Below are positions 14,055-59,944 of a DNA stretch of 64,000 nt, one piece after another. The translations under genes and the position numbers were made by a program. Numbering within the stretch: the stretch's first letter is position 1; each line of letters begins with the position of its first letter. The stretch lies in NCBI GenBank assembly GCA_963726265.1, contig CAVSBQ010000002.1, positions 1,030,533 to 1,094,532 of the forward strand, in the 5' to 3' direction. The notes beneath the pieces are model-generated. The model saw only the letters and a list, made by a program, of their open reading frames with translations, did not search any database and had not been told where the DNA came from. The stretch is from Candidatus Aenigmatarchaeota archaeon (GTDB taxonomy: Archaea > Aenigmatarchaeota > Aenigmatarchaeia > QMZP01 > QMZT01).

Positions 14055-14759
14055 ATGAAGTTCGGTTCTCTGAGCCTCAAGATTCACGGCAAACCAAAGA
14101 ACCCGGAAACGAATCCGGAAACCCCGGCGAAGACCGAGGGCAAGAAGAGAAAGCCCAAGAAATACGTCGAGGACATAAGGTCGGTTGCCGACATATTCAA
14201 GGAGCTGAAGGCGGAAAAAGCGAAGGAGAGGTTCGCAGTCCTGTGCGTGGGCAACGACATGAAGGGCGACGACGGGGTGGGCTTTTACGCCGGCGACCTG
14301 CTGAGCAGGGAGCTTGGCAAGGACGCGGATTTCATGGTGCTCAGGACGTCCGTCCCGGAAAACCACGTCAGGGAGATAAGGGACTTCGTCCCCACGCTGC
14401 TCATAATAATCGACTGCGCGGACTTCGGGAAAAGGCCGGGCAGCATCAGGGTCATAAAGGAATACCAGATAAGCGACACGTTCATCTCGACCCACACGAC
14501 CCCGCTCACGCTTTTTCTGCGCCTCTACCAGGCAGACGAGCCTGTCAGGAAAGCGGTCATCCTGATAGGCATACAGAAGAAGAGCAACGAGTTCGGCCAG
14601 CCCATGAGCGCGCCGGTGAAGAAGGCCGGGAAAAGGGTCGCGGATACGATAATAACGCTATACGGTGATGGCCTGCTGGGCATTTCGCTCGAGAAGGAGA
14701 TCGCCTATCTCTCGAACCCCATCAGGAATTTCCTCAGGTTTTTCAGAAGGAAAAAATGA
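14055..14759 (+). CDS. hycI: Hydrogenase maturation endopeptidase (HycI-like)
   Basis: LCVGNDMKGDDGVG, VPEN, IIDCADFG and STHTTPL motifs. Confidence 0.92.
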   Translation: MKFGSLSLKIHGKPKNPETNPETPAKTEGKKRKPKKYVEDIRSVADIFKELKAEKAKERFAVLCVGNDMKGDDGVGFYAGDLLSRELGKDADFMVLRTSVPENHVREIRDFVPTLLIIIDCADFGKRPGSIRVIKEYQISDTFISTHTTPLTLFLRLYQADEPVRKAVILIGIQKKSNEFGQPMSAPVKKAGKRVADTIITLYGDGLLGISLEKEIAYLSNPIRNFLRFFRRKK

Positions 14760-14781
14760 AGGCAGAAAACAGAAAAATGGA

Positions 14782-15120
14782 TTATTTTTTGTGATGCTCG
14801 GCGAACTTATGCCTGTCATGCGCGGCGAGCTCGAACCTGTCCGAGTTGTTCACTGACTTCGGCTTTGTGGGGCACACGTCATGGCAGCGTCCGCAGAAGA
14901 TGCACTTGCCTATGTCTATGGACCAGCTCTCCTCCACCTTGTTTATCGCTATCGCGTTGGTCGGGCAGCTTATGGCGCAGAGCATGCAGAAGGTGCACGT
15001 TTCCCTGTTCCATTCGACCTTGCCGCGGAAGCCTGGCGGAAGCAGCGGTCGCGTCTTGGGATAGCGCCTCGTCGACGGTCTCGAAAAAAGCCTTTTCACA
15101 GCCTCAGGCATCAGCTTCAT
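14782..15120 (-). CDS. 2x[4Fe-4S] subunit of a group-4 hydrogenase (NuoI/EchF/HycF-like)
   Basis: TRRYP...RGK, CTFCMLCAISCP and CIFCGRCHDVCP. Confidence 0.92.
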   Translation of the reverse strand: MKLMPEAVKRLFSRPSTRRYPKTRPLLPPGFRGKVEWNRETCTFCMLCAISCPTNAIAINKVEESWSIDIGKCIFCGRCHDVCPTKPKSVNNSDRFELAAHDRHKFAEHHKK

Positions 15121-15153
15121 TACATCACCACGTTTCCGATATCATTCCAGCAC

Positions 15154-16065
15154 TCAATACATTCCTATCATCACGCGCACCAGGTCTATCAGCGCGAGCG
15201 GCGCGATCACGAACCAGTAAAGCCTCAGTGCCTGCGCGATCCTCATCCTGGCGAAAATCACCCTGAAAAGCGCGAACAGCATGAGGATTGCGAACGAGTA
15301 GACGGCGAAAGACAAGACGCCGTCCGCGCCCATGAACATGACCGCCCCGAGCGATATGAGCACCCAGAAGCTCGCCGCCCTTGCCAGCTCGAACAGCGCG
15401 AGCCTCGGCCCGCTATACTCCGTCGTGGGGCCTGCGACTATCTCCTGCTCAGCATCCGGGATGTGGAACGGAGGAAGAGCAAGCTTGCCCAGCGCGCCGA
15501 GCATAAAGGCGGCGAAGGTGAACGGGAAGGCTAGCGCGGAAAACGGGGCTATCTGGAAACCGGTGAGCAGGCCTAGCGTGACCAGCGAGATTATGAACGG
15601 GAACTCGTAGGCGAAGAGCTGCGTCACCTCCCTTATGCTCCCGACGGATGCGAATGGGTTTCCTGCAGCGAAGCCCGAGATGGCGAAGAACGCGGACGCC
15701 GTGACGAGGAAGTATATCACCACGAACAGGCTTCCCGGGAAAGTGACGAGCTGGAAGCCGACTATCGGTATGAACATCGCGACAGTGAGCATCGCCGCGA
15801 ACGACACGATGGGACAAAGGGTGGCCAGCATGCCGACCGCGTCTTTGGTCGTGATGTTCTCCTTTGACATGAGCTTGAAGAAGTCGAGGAACGGCTGGCG
15901 GATTGGCGGCCCCACGCGGTGATGCATGCGCGCCGCGACCTTGCGCAGCACGCCCATGTAGAAAAATCCGATTATGAAAGCCGCAGCGAAACCGGGGAAT
16001 ACGAGGGTCTGGAAAAGAATCTGCGCAAGCTGTCCGCTCGCGAACGTGAGCGCTTCAATGGCCAT
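15154..16065 (-). CDS. Membrane subunit of a group-4 hydrogenase (NuoH/EchB/HycD-like)
   Basis: RKVAARMHHRVGPP..QPFLDFFKLMSKE, PFHIPDAEQEIVAGPTTEYSG. Confidence 0.93.
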   Translation of the reverse strand: MAIEALTFASGQLAQILFQTLVFPGFAAAFIIGFFYMGVLRKVAARMHHRVGPPIRQPFLDFFKLMSKENITTKDAVGMLATLCPIVSFAAMLTVAMFIPIVGFQLVTFPGSLFVVIYFLVTASAFFAISGFAAGNPFASVGSIREVTQLFAYEFPFIISLVTLGLLTGFQIAPFSALAFPFTFAAFMLGALGKLALPPFHIPDAEQEIVAGPTTEYSGPRLALFELARAASFWVLISLGAVMFMGADGVLSFAVYSFAILMLFALFRVIFARMRIAQALRLYWFVIAPLALIDLVRVMIGMY

Positions 16066-17236
16066 GATGACCTCCGCCTCTCATGTGCTGGATTTCGTGC
16101 TTTGTCATTATCCTTTCCTTGCGGGTTTTCTCGTCGACGACAGTCACCCTGTCCGTGCACGAAAGGCACGGGTCGAGCGACGCGATTATCACAGGAACGT
16201 CCGCTATCTCATACCCCTTCAGGACGTCGTCCAGGATGTGGAAGGTCTGGTAGGTGGGCGTGCGTATCTTGACCCTGTCCGGCTTTTCACCTGCCGACTT
16301 GAGATAATAAAAGAGTTCGCCCCTCGGCGCTTCCACGCGCGAAACGGTTTCGAGGCCTTCCTTAATATTTATCGCAGGCGGAAGTCTGAGTGTGATGTCG
16401 CCTTTCACTTTCTCCATCTGGTAAATAGAGTCGCGTATCATGCGCGAAGATTCCAGGCATTCCCTGAGGCGAAGGAGGCAGCGCTCCATGGCGTCGCCGC
16501 CCTGGCCAGTGACGGCCTTGAACTTCAGGTTTTTGTAGGCGAAGTAGCCAGTCTCCCTGACATCGTAATCAAGCCCTGACGCGCGCAGGTTCGGGCCGAC
16601 CGGGCTCAGCTCCTTCGCTTTCCGCGTGGAAAGGTAGCCGACGTGGCGGGTCCTGTTCCTGACAGAGGAGTCGTCCCTGAAGACGCCGAGATAATGCCTT
16701 ATCCTTTCGTCGAGTCTGTCCAGCGCTTTCAAAGTCTTCGCGGCGTTCTCGAGGCTTATGTCCTGCCTGACGCCGCCTATCACGTTCATCACGAAGTGGA
16801 CGCGGTTGCCCGTGAGCAGTTCCTGGCAGTCCATGACCAGCTCGCGGTCGCGGAACATGTAGTGAAAAAGAGTGTCGAGACCCATCTCCCACGCGACGAG
16901 GCCGAGGCAGAGCATGTGCGAGTGCAGGCGCTCGAGCTCGCCGATTATGACGCGGATATATTGCGCGCGCTCCGGGATTTCGGCTCCCATCAGGCTCTCG
17001 ATGCCCTGGCAGTAGCATGACGTGTGGTAATGGCCGCAGATGCCGCACACGCGCTCGCTCAGGTAAACTCCTTTCGCCCAAGGACGCGCTTCGAACGACT
17101 TCTCGATGCCCTTGTGGTTGTATCCCAGGACGAGCTCCGAGCCGACGATTGTTTCCCCGTCGACCCGGAGCTTTATGTGCACCGGCTCTGCGAGCGCCGG
17201 GTGCTGCGGGCCGAAAGGCAGGACGTAATCGTGCAT
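16055..17236 (-). CDS. Group-4 [NiFe]-hydrogenase large subunit (EchE/HycE/MbhL-like)
   Basis: GPQHP N-terminus, L1 motif ERVCGICG, VEAPRGE, L2 motif DPCLSCTDR, then a cleavable C-terminal tail. Confidence 0.94.
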   Translation of the reverse strand: MHDYVLPFGPQHPALAEPVHIKLRVDGETIVGSELVLGYNHKGIEKSFEARPWAKGVYLSERVCGICGHYHTSCYCQGIESLMGAEIPERAQYIRVIIGELERLHSHMLCLGLVAWEMGLDTLFHYMFRDRELVMDCQELLTGNRVHFVMNVIGGVRQDISLENAAKTLKALDRLDERIRHYLGVFRDDSSVRNRTRHVGYLSTRKAKELSPVGPNLRASGLDYDVRETGYFAYKNLKFKAVTGQGGDAMERCLLRLRECLESSRMIRDSIYQMEKVKGDITLRLPPAINIKEGLETVSRVEAPRGELFYYLKSAGEKPDRVKIRTPTYQTFHILDDVLKGYEIADVPVIIASLDPCLSCTDRVTVVDEKTRKERIMTKHEIQHMRGGGHHGH

Positions 17237-17265
17237 ATAATTAATTCAACGCCTGATTATAAGTA

Positions 17266-17363
17266 TTTTTTACAATTGCAAAAAAATGCGAGCAATCGTC
17301 AATTGTAAAATTGCAAATTTACAGATATGACAAATGCGAAAAATCAATTGTAAATTTACAATT
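17266..17363. promoter_or_regulatory. Cluster of CAATTG/TGTAAA palindromes upstream of the hydrogenase operon
   Basis: TTTTTTACAATTGCAAAAAA near-palindrome (17266-17285); perfect 18-bp AATTGTAAATTTACAATT (17346-17363); imperfect tandem AAATGCGA...CAATTGTAAA twice. Confidence 0.6.
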
Positions 17364-17436
17364 ATGAAAAATCAAGAAATATTAAGAAAGGTAAAAATAA
17401 TAAAAAGGCTGAAAGGAAAACCGGGAATGTCCTGTC

Positions 17437-27713: not shown

Positions 27714-27859
27714 GCTGAGATGGCCGAGTCCGGTTCAAGGCGCTCGCCTCGAGTGAGCTTTTTAGGAAAAAGCTCAAGCAAAAACGGCAACAGAAAGCTA
27801 ACGCTTCCGGGATAGCGAGTGGGCATCCGCCCGCGCAGGTTCGAATCCTGCTCTCAGCG
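27714..27859 (+). tRNA. tRNA-Ser(CGA) with a 60-nt intron at 37/38 (27754-27813)
   Basis: Acceptor GCTGAGA/TCTCAGC, anticodon stem CTCGC/GCGAG, long variable arm, BHB central helix CUCG/CGGG. Confidence 0.93.
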
Positions 27860-27868
27860 CTAACCATC

Positions 27869-27940
27869 GGGCTGGTGGTCTAGTGGCATGACGTCGCCTT
27901 CACACGGCGAAGATCGAGGGTTCAATTCCCTCCCGGCCCA
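27869..27940 (+). tRNA. tRNA-Val(CAC)
   Basis: GGGCTGG/CCGGCCC, TCGCC-TTCACAC-GGCGA, GAGGG-TTCAATT-CCCTC. Confidence 0.96.
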
Positions 27941-27977
27941 TGCTTATAAATCAGGCCAAAACATATTCACTATATCT

Positions 27978-28050
27978 GGGTCCATGGTCTAGTGGTTATG
28001 ACGTCTGCTTGACGTGCAGAAGATCGCTGGTTCGACTCCGGCTGGACCCA
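27978..28050 (+). tRNA. tRNA-Val(GAC)
   Basis: GGGTCCA/TGGACCC, TCTGC-TTGACGT-GCAGA, GCTGG-TTCGACT-CCGGC. Confidence 0.96.
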
Positions 28051-54056: not shown

Positions 54057-54178
54057 TTTTTCCGACTCATGTTTCATCTTCAGATTTCATAATATTTTTC
54101 TTGGATACCTGATATGATATCTAATTTGTGCCACTAAAAACATCCCATGTAAAAATCATCCTTCCAATTCCCATTCGT

Positions 54179-57100
54179 ATGAAAAGCTCTGTAAAACTCT
54201 CGATAGCCTTTGTTTTGTCCATTTCCCTTTTGTTCTCGTGCTCGTTGCTTTTGTGGAACGCTGAGGCCGACTTTTCCTTGCAGAAAGTCAGCCTCGGAAA
54301 CGATGCAGTTCGAATACAGACAGACCAAGCTACGCCCGTCCCTGTCGTGGACGTCCAGCTGCTCGAGAACACCGACCAGTGTCTGGCCGACTGCTACGCA
54401 ATCCTGAAATTTCATCCCTATCAGGACATGGCCATTCCGCCTCAGACCAATTCGGAATTCGCCTGGAATTTCGAGAAGGAAAAACCGTGGATGGACGGCC
54501 TCGTCTCTCACCATTTCGAGCTCCTTGAAACAACCGAGTACAAAGTCGATATCCCGGAATACGGTAAAACGTTCATCAACACAACATGCTATCACGAGGA
54601 CAACTCGACCTACGAGTGCGAGGTAGAGCAGACCGTCCAGACAGGCTCGCATCAGGAGACGAGATACAGGAACGAATACAAGCCGTTCGCCTTCTGGGGC
54701 GAAACTCTGAAAGCAAACCAGGACTACACGATAAAGCTCGTGGGCAAGAAGCGTCTCCATTTATTTGTAACCAATAACATCGACTGGATTCCAACAATAA
54801 AGGGACTTGACCTGAACGACTGGGCATGGTGGAATTCTAGCTGGAAATACAAACAGTCAATCAATGTCAGCATGACATCCAACGTTACTGGCTACCAACT
54901 TAAGATAGTTATCAACGAATCAAACAACGGATCACACTGGGACTGGACGAATGAATGCTCCGGGAAGTTCAGGATAGTGAACAAGGATGAAAATGAGACG
55001 CTGCCTTTCTGGATAGAGGAGTGTTCGGTTTCAGGCAAAAATATCACGTTCTGGTTCAACGGCTCTTTCAACGTCAACAACGGCACGCAGGCATACATTT
55101 ATTATGGAAATCCCTATGCTTCAAGCGGAAGCAACGGCACCCTGACCTTCCCTTTCTTTGATGACTTCGAGTACAGCGACAGCCCCTCAAATCATGGCTG
55201 GTCTCTCACCAATGCGAGTGGCGGGAACATATCCGTCAATAATTCATTCTACAAAACGGGCTCGCAATCGCTTTTGGTAAAAACTAACGGAAATACTCAT
55301 GCTTTAAACATTTCTTCTGGTTGGGGGAACTCCTCTCTGGAATGCTGGTTCCTCGATAACGGAGACTATGATGGCGGATTCACCGAAATAAACGTACTGC
55401 AATATGACAACACGACTGATGGGGTATATGTTGGCATAGACGAATCAGAAGTGCACTACAATTATTCATACAGATTTTACACTCCCGGGCAACAATACGA
55501 CACAAAAAAGGCGAGATCTAACGGATGGCATTCTTTGAGGATAACTTACAACGATTCAAGATATTATGTTTGGGTTGACGATGTTTACTACAATTCCACG
55601 GATAAACTCATTGCCCAGCCAACAAGAATAGTTCTTGGGTTTTGGTGGGCAAATCAATACGCCCAAAACTGGTTTGATGCGGTGAGGGTAAGAAAATATC
55701 TGCCCCAAGAGACTGCATACTCGTTGGGTTTGGAAAACGATGGCTGTCCTTCAGATGACACTTACATAAACGAAAACACGAAATTCGAGCCAGGTAATAT
55801 TTTTTGCAACGTACCCGATGGAGATAACGAAGGAGTGCTTATAATAAATGCTTCGAATATTATCTTGGATTGCAATGGCATGACATTGAATGGCATGGAT
55901 TCGGGGATAGGAATATATAATGATGGATTTGATAACGTAACAATAAAAAACTGCAATGTAAATAATTATAACAAGGGAATAGAATTTGAAAATAATGCTG
56001 ACAACAATACTATTTACAGCAATACACTTTATTCCAATATCGATCTGGAATTTTCTTTTTTTGCGATTCTTGTATCGGGCCGGAGGGAAATAATATAATC
56101 AACAATAAAATTGATTCAAATCAATTCGGGTTATACCTTTATCTTTCTTCTAAAAATACTATAGTTGGTAATAATATAACTAATAGTTCGCATTTTGGAA
56201 TAATTATAACTGATACTCATTTGAGGAGGTGGAGTATAACAATACAATATCTAACTTGTAGAATCAGATCAAAATGTGACATATTGCAATGGCAATTTTT
56301 ATGAAGCAATTTGTGATGTTTATATAGATAACGCAGCACTGAGATTTTCTTCCTAAATACTACATATAGTACAGAATATGTTGATGGAAACTCTAATCTC
56401 ACAAGGCAATGGTACGTGAAAGTCAACGTCACCGACAAGAACATGGTTGGCATCCAAAATTACAGGTTTCCGCGAAAGACAAGTATGGTAATATTGAATG
56501 GACAGAAAACACGTATTCAAACGGGCTGACAGGATGGAAAACAACGACTCAATACATCCACAACCAAAGCGGAATCTACAATTACACCCCCCACAACATC
56601 TCAGCCTCGCATCCGGATTACCCGTCAAACTTCACGGTGCAGAACATCACCGAAAGCAAGGTAATTCATCTTCTGCTCAAGCTGCCGTTAATCACGTTCA
56701 ACGTCACCAGCGGCGAGGACGGCAGCCCGTTGGACAACGTCAACATCGCATGCAACTACACCAGCTTCAACCAGAGTGACGATACCACGAACCCCTACGG
56801 GCCTTATGAGTTTCCAGTTGGAAGCTGGAGTTGTGAGTTTGAGGCAAAGCAACCGCAATTGCCAACAAATTACTTTAATGAAACAATAATATTCAACGCA
56901 AATGGAGATAAAACTGTAAATGTCGTGATGGACGAACAAGCATATCTTACGGTCCAAGAACATGATTGGCTTGAAAAACTTTTCAATTGTTTATATCTTG
57001 GAACTGGAGATGATTGTTCATCTTTGCAATTTTTTAACCAAATAAATCAGAGCACTACCAAAACATGGAACCAATTCAAGCGCACGGATCAGAGCATTGT

Positions 57101-57755
57101 AGCTTCAGAAATAATAACAAATAAAACAGTGAGTGAAAACTCAAACTTGACCATAAATTATTCAGTAAACGTTCCAATCAAGGAAGGCTTCAGTTTCGGT
57201 CAAACTTCTGGAGAAGTGAGACTCGATTACCTGCCAATAAGAATATCTTACTGGTTCTTGGATTCGAATAATTTGACTTGCTATTCGCAAGGTAACTATT
57301 CAGTAGCATTAGCCGAACCCTATTGTCAACCATTAACAGTTTATACCATCGGTCAGGTAAATACGACTCTTGATTTCACTGTCAGCTTAAGGCCGACTTT
57401 GCCTGCAGGAAATTACACCATCATCAGAAATATAGAAATAGATCCTGAACAGGTATGGATAGATTATGGTCAGGAAATAATCGGACAAGTTGAAATTTCT
57501 GGGGATAACAAGGAATCATATGCCATCGTGAAGAACACGAATAATATACTCAAAATGACAGAGAAAACAAATGAAGATACCCATCTAAAGGAAACATCTT
57601 CAGTAGAAAATGAACAGCAGCAAACAGATAAAACAACAGGAATGGTAACGATACAACCAATCGATAGCATATCTTATGTCGCAGTTATAGTTTCAATCAT
57701 AACTTTGCTACTAGTCGGCCTCATATACAAAAATTCGCGCAAAAGAAACCCTTGA
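54179..57755 (+). pseudogene. Large surface protein (about 1190 aa if restored): N-terminal module, DUF2341-like and lectin-like region, parallel beta-helix, stalk, C-terminal TM; five -1 frameshifts in 56037-56465 (possibly sequencing errors)
   Basis: The two long track ORFs (54128 and 56409) are bridged by short in-sense segments (GIFFFCDSCIGPEGNNIINNKID..., LTRQWYVKVNVTDKN); length plus 5 nt is divisible by 3. Confidence 0.75.
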
Positions 57756-57810
57756 GGTCGATAAGTCGTTTAAACATAAGTTTTTGTTCAGGTAAATCGA
57801 ATTATTAATT

Positions 57811-59944
57811 ATGAATAGAAATTTACTCTTAATAATTTTATTCATAAATATTCTAATTTCAAATTCTGCTGAAGCGTCACAAATCTATCTGAACAGGAAC
57901 GAATCGTGGGGAGGAAATCTGACGGGCATTTTCCATAGTTCGCTGGTTTTCGGCGACATAAACAATGACGGATATAATGACATGATATCAAGCGGCTGCA
58001 CGGCGGGCGACATTACCACATGCACGACGGCGATTACGAAAGTTTATACCAATAATGGAACCACGTTGACCGAAAACCAGACGTGGCAGCAAAATCTCAC
58101 AGGCGTTGGTCTTAGCTCACTCTCACTAGGAGATATCGACAACGACGGGAATTTGGATTTGGTTTTGGCCGGAGACATGGGAGGATTTGATGGCACGATA
58201 AAGGTCTACACGAACAATGGCACTGTCTTCAATGAAAATTTGTCATGGGAAGCAAATCTTACTGACATTAGCGTAATTGGCGGTTCTGTCGCTCTTGGTG
58301 ATGTTAATAATGATGGCAGAATCGATTTAGCTTTAGAAGGTGCTGATTCCTCGAATAAAAATGGAATTTATATTAACAATGGTACATCCTTCAATAAAGA
58401 TTTCTATTGGGTAAATAATATGTCATTAGCCGGGCAAGGATATGGATTTGGTGTAAATGCGTTAGGAGATTTGAATAACGATGGACTTATAGATTTGATA
58501 TTTTCTGGTAGCTATAGCACAAATTTTTATGTAAATGTTTACATTAATAATGGAAGTTCTCTAATCGAAAATGCCACATGGCGAAATGGCTTAGATACTT
58601 GGGCATGGCCATCGATTATTCTTGGAGATTATGACAACGATGGGGATATGGATTTGGCATATATGGGAACACATGGTGGTGACAGGTTTTATATATATAA
58701 TAATTCTGGAAATACGTTTATTCGCGGGCAGCTTGTTGGAGGTCTTTTTGATGGTTCAATATCATGGGGAGATTACAACAATGATGGTTATTTGGACTTG
58801 GCTTCAATGGGAAAGGAAGAAGATAGAAGTGTAATTTTTTTTAATAATTTTACAGATTTTTTATATGATTCTAATGTTAACATCGATTTTCGAACTGATA
58901 ACATGCAGCAGGGTTCACTTGCCTGGATTGATTTAGATAATGACAGAGATTTGGATTTGGCATGTAATGGAAATGGTTATGGAATCGGTTTGTTAAACAA
59001 AATTTACATCAGTAATTCAACAACATCAAATAATAGCCCGACACCTCCAATATCGTATTTCAACTCCACCTTCAACTTCTCAATCGGTAAATTAACATTG
59101 TCATGGGGCAACGGTTCCGACGTCGAGACTCCGACACTCGGTCTGTATTACAATCTTCGCGTCGGAACCTGTTCAGGTTGCCACGACGTGGTTTCGGGCA
59201 TTTATGGCGGCTCTTCAAACCCGACCGCAGGTTACTTCGGCAACATGATGCAGAGGAAGCGCATCGTCTTGAACAGGCCGGATCTGGAGAACAAGACGAT
59301 TTATTGGGCGGTGCAGACGATAGATACTGGTCTTGGCGAAATCTGCGTGGTCAACGGAGCAGGTATATCACATAGCACAACAGTGCACCGAGAATTGGAC
59401 TTACGGTGCATGGTCTTCTTGTGTCAATAACCAGCAGACTAGGACTGCTACTGACTCGAATAACTGCGGAACGACGATAAACAAGAGTGCGACCATTCAG
59501 AGCTGCACCTCATCTGCGCCGCCGTCAGGCGGCAGTCCTGCGCTGCCGGCTGCGACGAAGAACGAGACGAACGGGACCTCTGCGAATGCCGGTTCCTCGG
59601 GAACAAACACGACAAACGCCTCCGGTAACGTCAGTGCAGGCGCGAACGCGGATTCTTTGATGAACGGAAGCAACCAAAGCATGATAACATGCGTGCCTCT
59701 TGACGTCAAATGCGAAGGCAATGCTTTGCTGGAATGCGCTGCTTCGGAGATGAGATGGGCGGTCAAGCAGATATGCGAGTATGGCTGCGATGATGGGAGA
59801 TGCAAGGAAAAGCCTTTTTGGTCTGCGGACATTTTCAGTTATTTGTGGTTGTTGGCAATTGCCGTCGTCGTTCTCGTTGCAGTTGTCTTTTTTCTTTTTT
59901 TGAAAACGAAAAGAACCAGTCATGAGGGTTTTTCAGTTGCCTGA
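57811..59944 (+). CDS. FG-GAP/VCBS beta-propeller adhesin with FnIII-like domain, Cys-rich modules and TM anchor; +1 frameshift at about 59335
   Basis: Repeated GDxNNDGxxDL motifs; YWAVQTIDTGL continues as AKSAWS in the next frame. Restored ORF is 710 aa. Confidence 0.87.

Follow-up and report, generated by a model that had tools for sequence, protein, structure and literature searches.

A probably complete Mbh-type [NiFe]-hydrogenase dispersed over three loci in an Aenigmatarchaeota genome

Does a hydrogenase large subunit that is encoded with only two partner subunits belong to a minimal enzyme, or is it one end of a larger complex whose other genes lie elsewhere? The question is raised by a 64,000-nucleotide (nt) stretch of DNA (the window, C2:1030533-1094532) from a metagenome-assembled genome (MAG) of a Candidatus Aenigmatarchaeota archaeon, an assembly of 1.13 Mb in 4 contigs, one of 1.105 Mb (C2), with an estimated completeness of 88%. 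The window encodes a [NiFe] large subunit, a NuoH-like and a NuoI-like subunit and a convergent HycI-type protease (mbhL, mbhM, mbhN and hycI; Table 1, where window genes are given in window coordinates). An earlier sequence-only reading had described this layout, which is borne out in every detail by reading frames and family matches, and had proposed either a split operon or a stripped-down enzyme that pumps no ions. Our analysis indicates that mbhLMN and hycI are very probably the catalytic-arm end of an Mbh-type, Mrp-linked group-4 hydrogenase that is complete with 14 subunits and is encoded at three separately promoted loci, dispersed by rearrangement. It is an ordinary Mbh-type enzyme with scattered genes and not a new minimal hydrogenase.

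In profile searches the large subunit matched Complex1_49kDa (1e-60) and the N-terminus of NiFeSe_Hases (1.6e-11). All four nickel-ligand cysteines are present, in an L1 motif RVCGICGHYH (RVCGIC at residue 62) and an L2 motif DPCLSCTDR (residue 355), and the protein extends 30 amino acids (aa) beyond ...CTDR to its end at ...HEIQHMRGGGHHGH, with the terminus GGGHHGH; the cysteines and the cleavable-type tail with its His-rich end had both been recognised correctly before. Its best match of solved structure is MbhL of Pyrococcus furiosus (6cfw_L, 251.7 bits), a chain that stops at ...CTDR, followed by Escherichia coli HycE (7z0s_E, 238 bits), for which the alignment extends into the tail. The reading frame of mbhM overlaps that of mbhL by 11 nt, and its orthologues (64-71% identical) are located directly 3' of mbhL in all relatives compared. 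MbhN carries two CxxCxxCxxxCP motifs, CTFCMLCAISCP and CIFCGRCHDVCP, and matches formate hydrogenlyase Fe-S subunit and NuoI subfamilies of NCBIfam. HycI, which begins with a Lys-rich extension of ~60 aa, matches PF01750 (2.3e-18), TIGR00072 (95 bits, cut-off 47) and TIGR00142 (119.0 bits, cut-off 119.1). The window lacks genes of the NuoB, NuoC, antiporter and Hyp families, which agrees with the earlier observation that none flanks the operon; all genome-wide matches to these families are located elsewhere.

A search of the whole genome for the NuoB family gave two matches, the small subunit of a group-3b-like hydrogenase and MbhJ, which is encoded within a row of eight genes, mbhD to mbhK. 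In this row MbhD belongs to PF13244 and MbhE to PF20501, MbhF is MnhB-like and MbhG NuoK-like (with matches to PF04039 and PF00420), MbhH is MrpD-like (PF00361, 223 bits), and the NuoC-like MbhK is a separate protein of 136 aa (PF00329, 94 bits), mbhJ and mbhK together spanning C2:718038-719011. The remaining three genes were located with the MbhA-C proteins of a relative with an unsplit operon (L028) as queries, and their products match MNHE (PF01899), MrpF (PF04066) and MnhG (PF03334). The three loci lie on one contig, mbhABC at 366.9-368.0, mbhD-K at 718.0-721.9 and mbhLMN at 1045.3-1047.8 kb of C2, so spaced that mbhD-K is 327 kb from mbhLMN and ~350-354 kb from mbhABC. All 14 Mbh subunit families are present, each subunit as a single copy, and no second complex-I-like set was found in the genome; with single-copy subunits and no other such set to join, the three gene sets can only belong together.

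Table 1. Coordinates of the hydrogenase-related features (window coordinates unless preceded by C2)
Feature	Position	Strand	Description
mbhL	17236..16055	-	393 aa; [NiFe] large subunit, group-4 Mbh-type
mbhM	16065..15154	-	303 aa; NuoH-like membrane subunit; Pfam NADHdh 5.8e-56 (PF00146)
mbhN	15120..14782	-	112 aa; NuoI/HycF-like 2x[4Fe-4S] ferredoxin-type subunit; Fer4 families
hycI	14055..14759	+	234 aa; large-subunit C-terminal endopeptidase; convergent with mbhN
predicted mbhLMN promoter region	17237-17436	-	200-nt AT-rich non-coding stretch 5' of mbhL
mbhD-E-F-G-H-I-J-K	C2:721937..718038	-	gene row flanked by prefoldin gene and convergent Memo gene
mbhI	C2:718960-719257 (L001:1965-2262)		between mbhH and mbhJ
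mbhJ	C2:718478-719011		NuoB-like; PF01058, 112 bits; Cys in GCSGCNGC, GACP, PGCPP
mbhA-B-C	C2:366946-367989		MrpE/F/G-like; between ribosomal protein L18 and FtsY genes
second hydrogenase	C2:127091-131694		four-gene group-3b-like operon; 358, 276, 329, 435 aa
hypC trio	C2:824218-825828		outside window; hypC 54 aa, HypC-like DUF6390-related protein 171 aa, EamA-type transporter 304 aa

If the complex works like its homolog from P. furiosus, reduced ferredoxin, for instance from a pyruvate:ferredoxin oxidoreductase (POR, whose genes are encoded in the genome), would deliver electrons through the two clusters of MbhN and the cluster of MbhJ to MbhL, at whose [NiFe] site protons would be reduced to H2. 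The membrane modules MbhM/MbhH/MbhD-G and MbhA-C could couple H2 formation to the translocation of H+ or Na+, and HycI would be expected to cut off the 30-aa tail of MbhL once the metal is inserted.

The same dispersion is found in related genomes. The closest public loci to the window all stem from Candidatus Aenigmatarchaeota MAGs, and 16 loci with MbhL proteins 60-77% identical share the order tRNA-binding gene, mbhL-M-N, convergent hycI, SpoIIM-like gene and L10e; mbhJ and mbhK are absent within 10 kb of mbhL at all 16. MbhL was detected in 33 and MbhJ in 32 of 40 sampled relatives from the same order (34 and 33 of 41 with the genome studied here). Within its own family, mbhL and mbhJ are on different contigs in 21 genomes, which is every case where both were detected, even in assemblies with as few as 7 and 10 contigs. 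Elsewhere in the order, in families other than this one, mbhJ is located ~1 kb upstream of mbhL. The two other loci are conserved as well: the prefoldin-mbhD..K-Memo arrangement is kept in six relatives and the S2-L19e-L18-mbhABC-FtsY arrangement in three lineages, in which MbhA identity falls to as low as 51%, with identities of 55-90% across relatives for the subunits encoded outside the window. L028 (JASEGC010000001), a more distant member of the Aenigmatarchaeota, has a contiguous mbhA-N operon, likely the ancestral arrangement, and its hycI is in the convergent position that is kept in 15 relatives altogether. Since the same junctions recur across the family, the split is an ancient rearrangement, passed on stably, and not a misassembly, which supports the split operon that the sequence-only reading had offered as its alternative. 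A three-way split kept throughout a family implies that a 14-subunit respiratory complex can persist without operon linkage, and it cautions that, where DPANN genomes are rearranged, a single operon is no safe guide to the composition of an enzyme.

With P. furiosus Mbh (MbhA-N, PDB 6CFW) the predicted complex shares 14 of 14 subunit families, the four nickel cysteines of MbhL and the predicted cleavage site ...CTDR, but its genes occupy three loci instead of one operon, in a 1.1-Mb Aenigmatarchaeota host from which HypD, HypE and HypF are absent. The single mbhA-N operon that is typical of characterised Mbh enzymes, and that is not a biochemical requirement, does not exist here. The L028 operon has the same subunit order, MbhL and MbhJ proteins of 51% and 60% identity and the convergent hycI, and differs in being unsplit. 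E. coli Hyc (HycE/HycI, PDB 7Z0S) has a homologous tail after DPCxxCTDR and an endopeptidase of the HycI type, whereas its HycE is a protein of ~570 aa with an N-terminal NuoC-like fusion; in the genome studied here MbhK is separate and Mrp modules are present. A formate hydrogenlyase (group 4a, Hyc/Hyf) was rejected on these grounds, the 393-aa MbhL aligning only to HycE residues 192-569 and the NuoC-like protein being separate. An Ech-type enzyme (group 4e, six subunits EchA-F) is ruled out by the homologs of MbhD, MbhE, MnhB and MrpE/F/G, and a NuoD relative without hydrogenase function (complex I, Fpo, Mbx/MBS) by the four nickel cysteines kept in MbhL. In Methanococcus maripaludis the genes for Ehb, a multi-subunit energy-converting group-4 hydrogenase of the Eha/Ehb subgroup serving anabolic ferredoxin reduction, are not all in one operon (a point for which we found no citable statement), so that a scattered gene set would have a precedent. 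Group-4 membrane-bound hydrogenases have already been published for non-thermal 'Ca. Aenigmarchaeota' (Li et al., 2021, mSystems, PMC8407114); the passages of that paper retrieved by word search do not describe the three-locus layout, the missing Hyp maturases or intein alleles.

Three points weigh against a complete and working Mbh enzyme, for which co-expression and assembly of the three gene sets are predictions. First, we looked for a shared operator of the three mbh promoters and found no common motif, and the repeats upstream of mbhL are found nowhere else in the genome, so that a common regulator is unsupported. Second, mbhI in this assembly contains one extra base (..CCCGAGGAATAGG..) that divides it into two frames; the gene is intact in six relatives, and the 1-nt insertion is either a sequencing or assembly error or a real frameshift defect. 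Finally, the activity of the hydrogenase is not assured because HypD, HypE and HypF are absent, and a [NiFe] site is not expected to form without them; to our knowledge, this machinery is held to be universal.

The absence of the maturases, already remarked for the surroundings of the operon, thus extends to the whole assembly. HypD gave no match in the genome, HypF only partial matches of 35 and 32 bits, and the best match to HypA was below the cut-off. An apparent HypE at C2:1025615, 4 kb upstream of the window, turned out to be ThiL beside ThiC. Searches by tblastn, with HypC, HypD, HypE and HypF from those few relatives in which they occur, gave the same result: the genome lacks HypD, HypE and HypF and keeps one HypC of 54 aa. 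The pattern is shared by the order, as among its 41 genomes MbhL and HypC were found in 34 each, HypD in 4 and HypF in 3, a scarcity that genome incompleteness (5-20%) cannot explain. A route through HydG and a HypC::HydE protein was rejected, as eight radical S-adenosylmethionine open reading frames of the genome encode Tes, TYW1, HpnJ-like or SPASM proteins and none encodes HydG or HydE. No HypC domain fused to a long open reading frame was found in the genome. In one genus of the order, HypC domains do stand at the start of long frames (G036:C44:77523-77714, 432 aa; G039:C52:2572-2763, 566 aa), which may represent HypC fusion proteins. A literature search on missing Hyp genes in DPANN archaea yielded nothing usable.

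These defects might also mean that the hydrogenase is a decaying remnant, with its scattered genes, the missing HypD/E/F and the frameshifted mbhI as signs of an inactive enzyme that is being lost. The three absent maturases, the frameshift in this assembly and the operon in three pieces would all fit such a scenario, but the layout has been kept with intact frames over family-level divergence (MbhL 51-77% identical), including the mbhI of the six relatives. The L1 and L2 nickel motifs are conserved in 19 of 19 MbhL orthologues, and so are the cleavage-site Arg and the tail (24-40 aa); HycI and HypC have each been kept in parallel with MbhL, in 34 of 41 genomes. Moreover, the Cys motifs are gone from those paralogues in relatives that are truly not hydrogenases, and this is what decay or repurposing looks like in the group. 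We therefore consider decay improbable. Less probable still is a minimal three-subunit hydrogenase, in which MbhL, MbhM and MbhN alone would act as an electron sink that evolves H2, pumps no ions and has neither a small subunit nor antiporter modules, as the sequence-only reading had suggested. Only three structural genes and hycI are indeed clustered in the window, with a conserved promoter block of their own. This proposal fails nonetheless on the genome-wide family search, by which the very subunits counted as missing were found at two other loci of the same contig, MbhJ/K/H with MbhD/E/F/G/I and MbhA/B/C, in single copy, conserved, and with no other partner in the genome; moreover, the enzyme would have to bypass the NuoB-like cluster through which, in every solved relative we know of, the electron path to the [NiFe] site passes. 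That the operon is really contiguous and was broken by misassembly or binning can practically be dismissed, for although the genome is a 4-contig MAG estimated to be 88% complete, its three loci all fall within a single contig of 1.105 Mb and are surrounded by ordinary housekeeping genes, and identical junctions occur in at least 16 independently assembled MAGs.

If a complete Mbh enzyme is indeed formed, how might its active site be assembled? The single hypC is the first gene of a trio (Table 1) in which the frame of the EamA-type transporter overlaps the 171-aa gene by 4 nt. All named members of the family to which the 171-aa protein belongs come from Aenigmatarchaeota; the protein has weak matches to DUF6390 and HypC and invariant residues Cys20, His88, Cys107 and His150. 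In a structural model (predicted local distance difference test score 90.7) its C-terminal half superposes on HypC of Thermococcus kodakarensis with a root-mean-square deviation of 1.5-2.1 A, and a fold search returned only HypC, for this half, with no convincing match to the helical domain at the N-terminus. In 12 of the 13 loci retrieved from HypD-negative relatives, which belong to four families, the trio genes stand side by side. The four HypD-positive genomes (G007, G008, G016, G030), judged by their hypC neighbourhood, show only a canonical HypC, beside hypD, suggesting that the trio and HypD may be mutually exclusive, even within one genus (G016 versus G011). The distribution of MbhL and HypC as against that of HypD and HypF, together with the occurrence of the trio, lends some support to the tentative idea that the Mbh and the group-3b-like enzyme could be matured without HypD/E/F, HydG and HydE, via the trio or by supply from a host cell, though we hold this to be somewhat doubtful. 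Intact [NiFe]-hydrogenases, their protease and HypC are kept in the whole lineage mostly without HypD and HypF; should the enzymes be active, there must be a maturation pathway besides that of the textbooks. Directly upstream of hypC is an ornithine/aspartate carbamoyltransferase gene (C2:823239-824168). In the canonical pathway the cyanide ligands derive from carbamoyl phosphate; the adjacency recurs in G001, G014, G018 and, more weakly, in G006, was not seen in other families and may be plain synteny.

The tail of MbhL had been thought to help recruit nickel through its His-rich end. Such an end is found in roughly half of the 19 orthologues, others terminating for example in EDREG, REEG or RERRK; nickel recruitment is possible, and since the His-rich end is missing in about half of the proteins it finds no support in conservation. 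A different feature concerns the nickel motifs. In two relatives, one of the same genus (L034:8177-10993, JBGPQP010000010) and one at L027:4789-7545, MbhL is interrupted by an in-frame intein of ~545 aa with the Pfam domains Intein_splicing and LAGLIDADG_3 (LAGLIDADG endonuclease motifs). It begins with CLPKNEE, ends with VVSN and is inserted exactly between RVCGI and CGHYH, a position that makes the second nickel-ligand Cys the +1 nucleophile of splicing. This would be a natural case of active-site formation that depends on protein splicing, and a search for publications on hydrogenase large subunits with inteins found none among the papers covered. The MbhL encoded in the window contains no intein.

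The non-coding stretch in front of mbhL, the first gene after it as noted in the sequence-only reading, probably acts as a promoter. A TATA-like box, CTTATAA (~17255-17265), is centred ~25 nt upstream of the mbhL ATG, and the block (T)TCTTATA(A/T)... AATTAATTAT-ATG is kept 5' of mbhL in 16 relatives despite a differing upstream neighbour. Such conservation next to a variable neighbour fits an independent transcription unit, and mbhLMN would be transcribed as a nearly leaderless one. Upstream of the TATA box are the palindromic repeats TGTAAATTTRCAA / TACAATTGA, and the region 17290-17365 contains palindromic and direct repeats (TGTAAATTTACAATTGA, TGTAAATTTGCAATTTTACAATTGA, TTGCAATTGTAA) that may constitute an operator; no further copy of the repeats was found in the genome, and they do not occur in the relatives.

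The second hydrogenase of the genome, the group-3b-like enzyme, has the large-subunit motifs RICGICSVVH and DPCFSCSSH, and its operon is followed by a convergent gene for a weakly HycI-like protease of 128 aa. Some relatives encode a second, contiguous Mbh-like cluster (G015:C41:9089-10165, G006:C3:17154-18236, G030:C1:37351-38457). Its NuoD-like subunits lack the nickel cysteines and read DRVCVLEP and NPCPADMDR at the corresponding motifs, and it probably represents an Mbx/MBS-like complex; no such cluster was found in the genome that contains the window. We also considered selenocysteine in these second MbhL-like paralogues, where an in-frame TGA had been flagged, and rejected it because the TGA is a plain stop codon; these paralogues have lost the nickel cysteines.

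Elsewhere in the window, positions 54128-59430 form an island of low GC content (37-44% compared with ~52%) that was possibly acquired. It encodes three large proteins, of 656 aa with DUF2341, of 448 aa with no family assignment and of 539 aa with FG-GAP repeats, all of which are probably surface proteins. Three tRNA genes are clustered at 27714-28050, the first of which spans 146 nt and, given this length, probably contains an intron.

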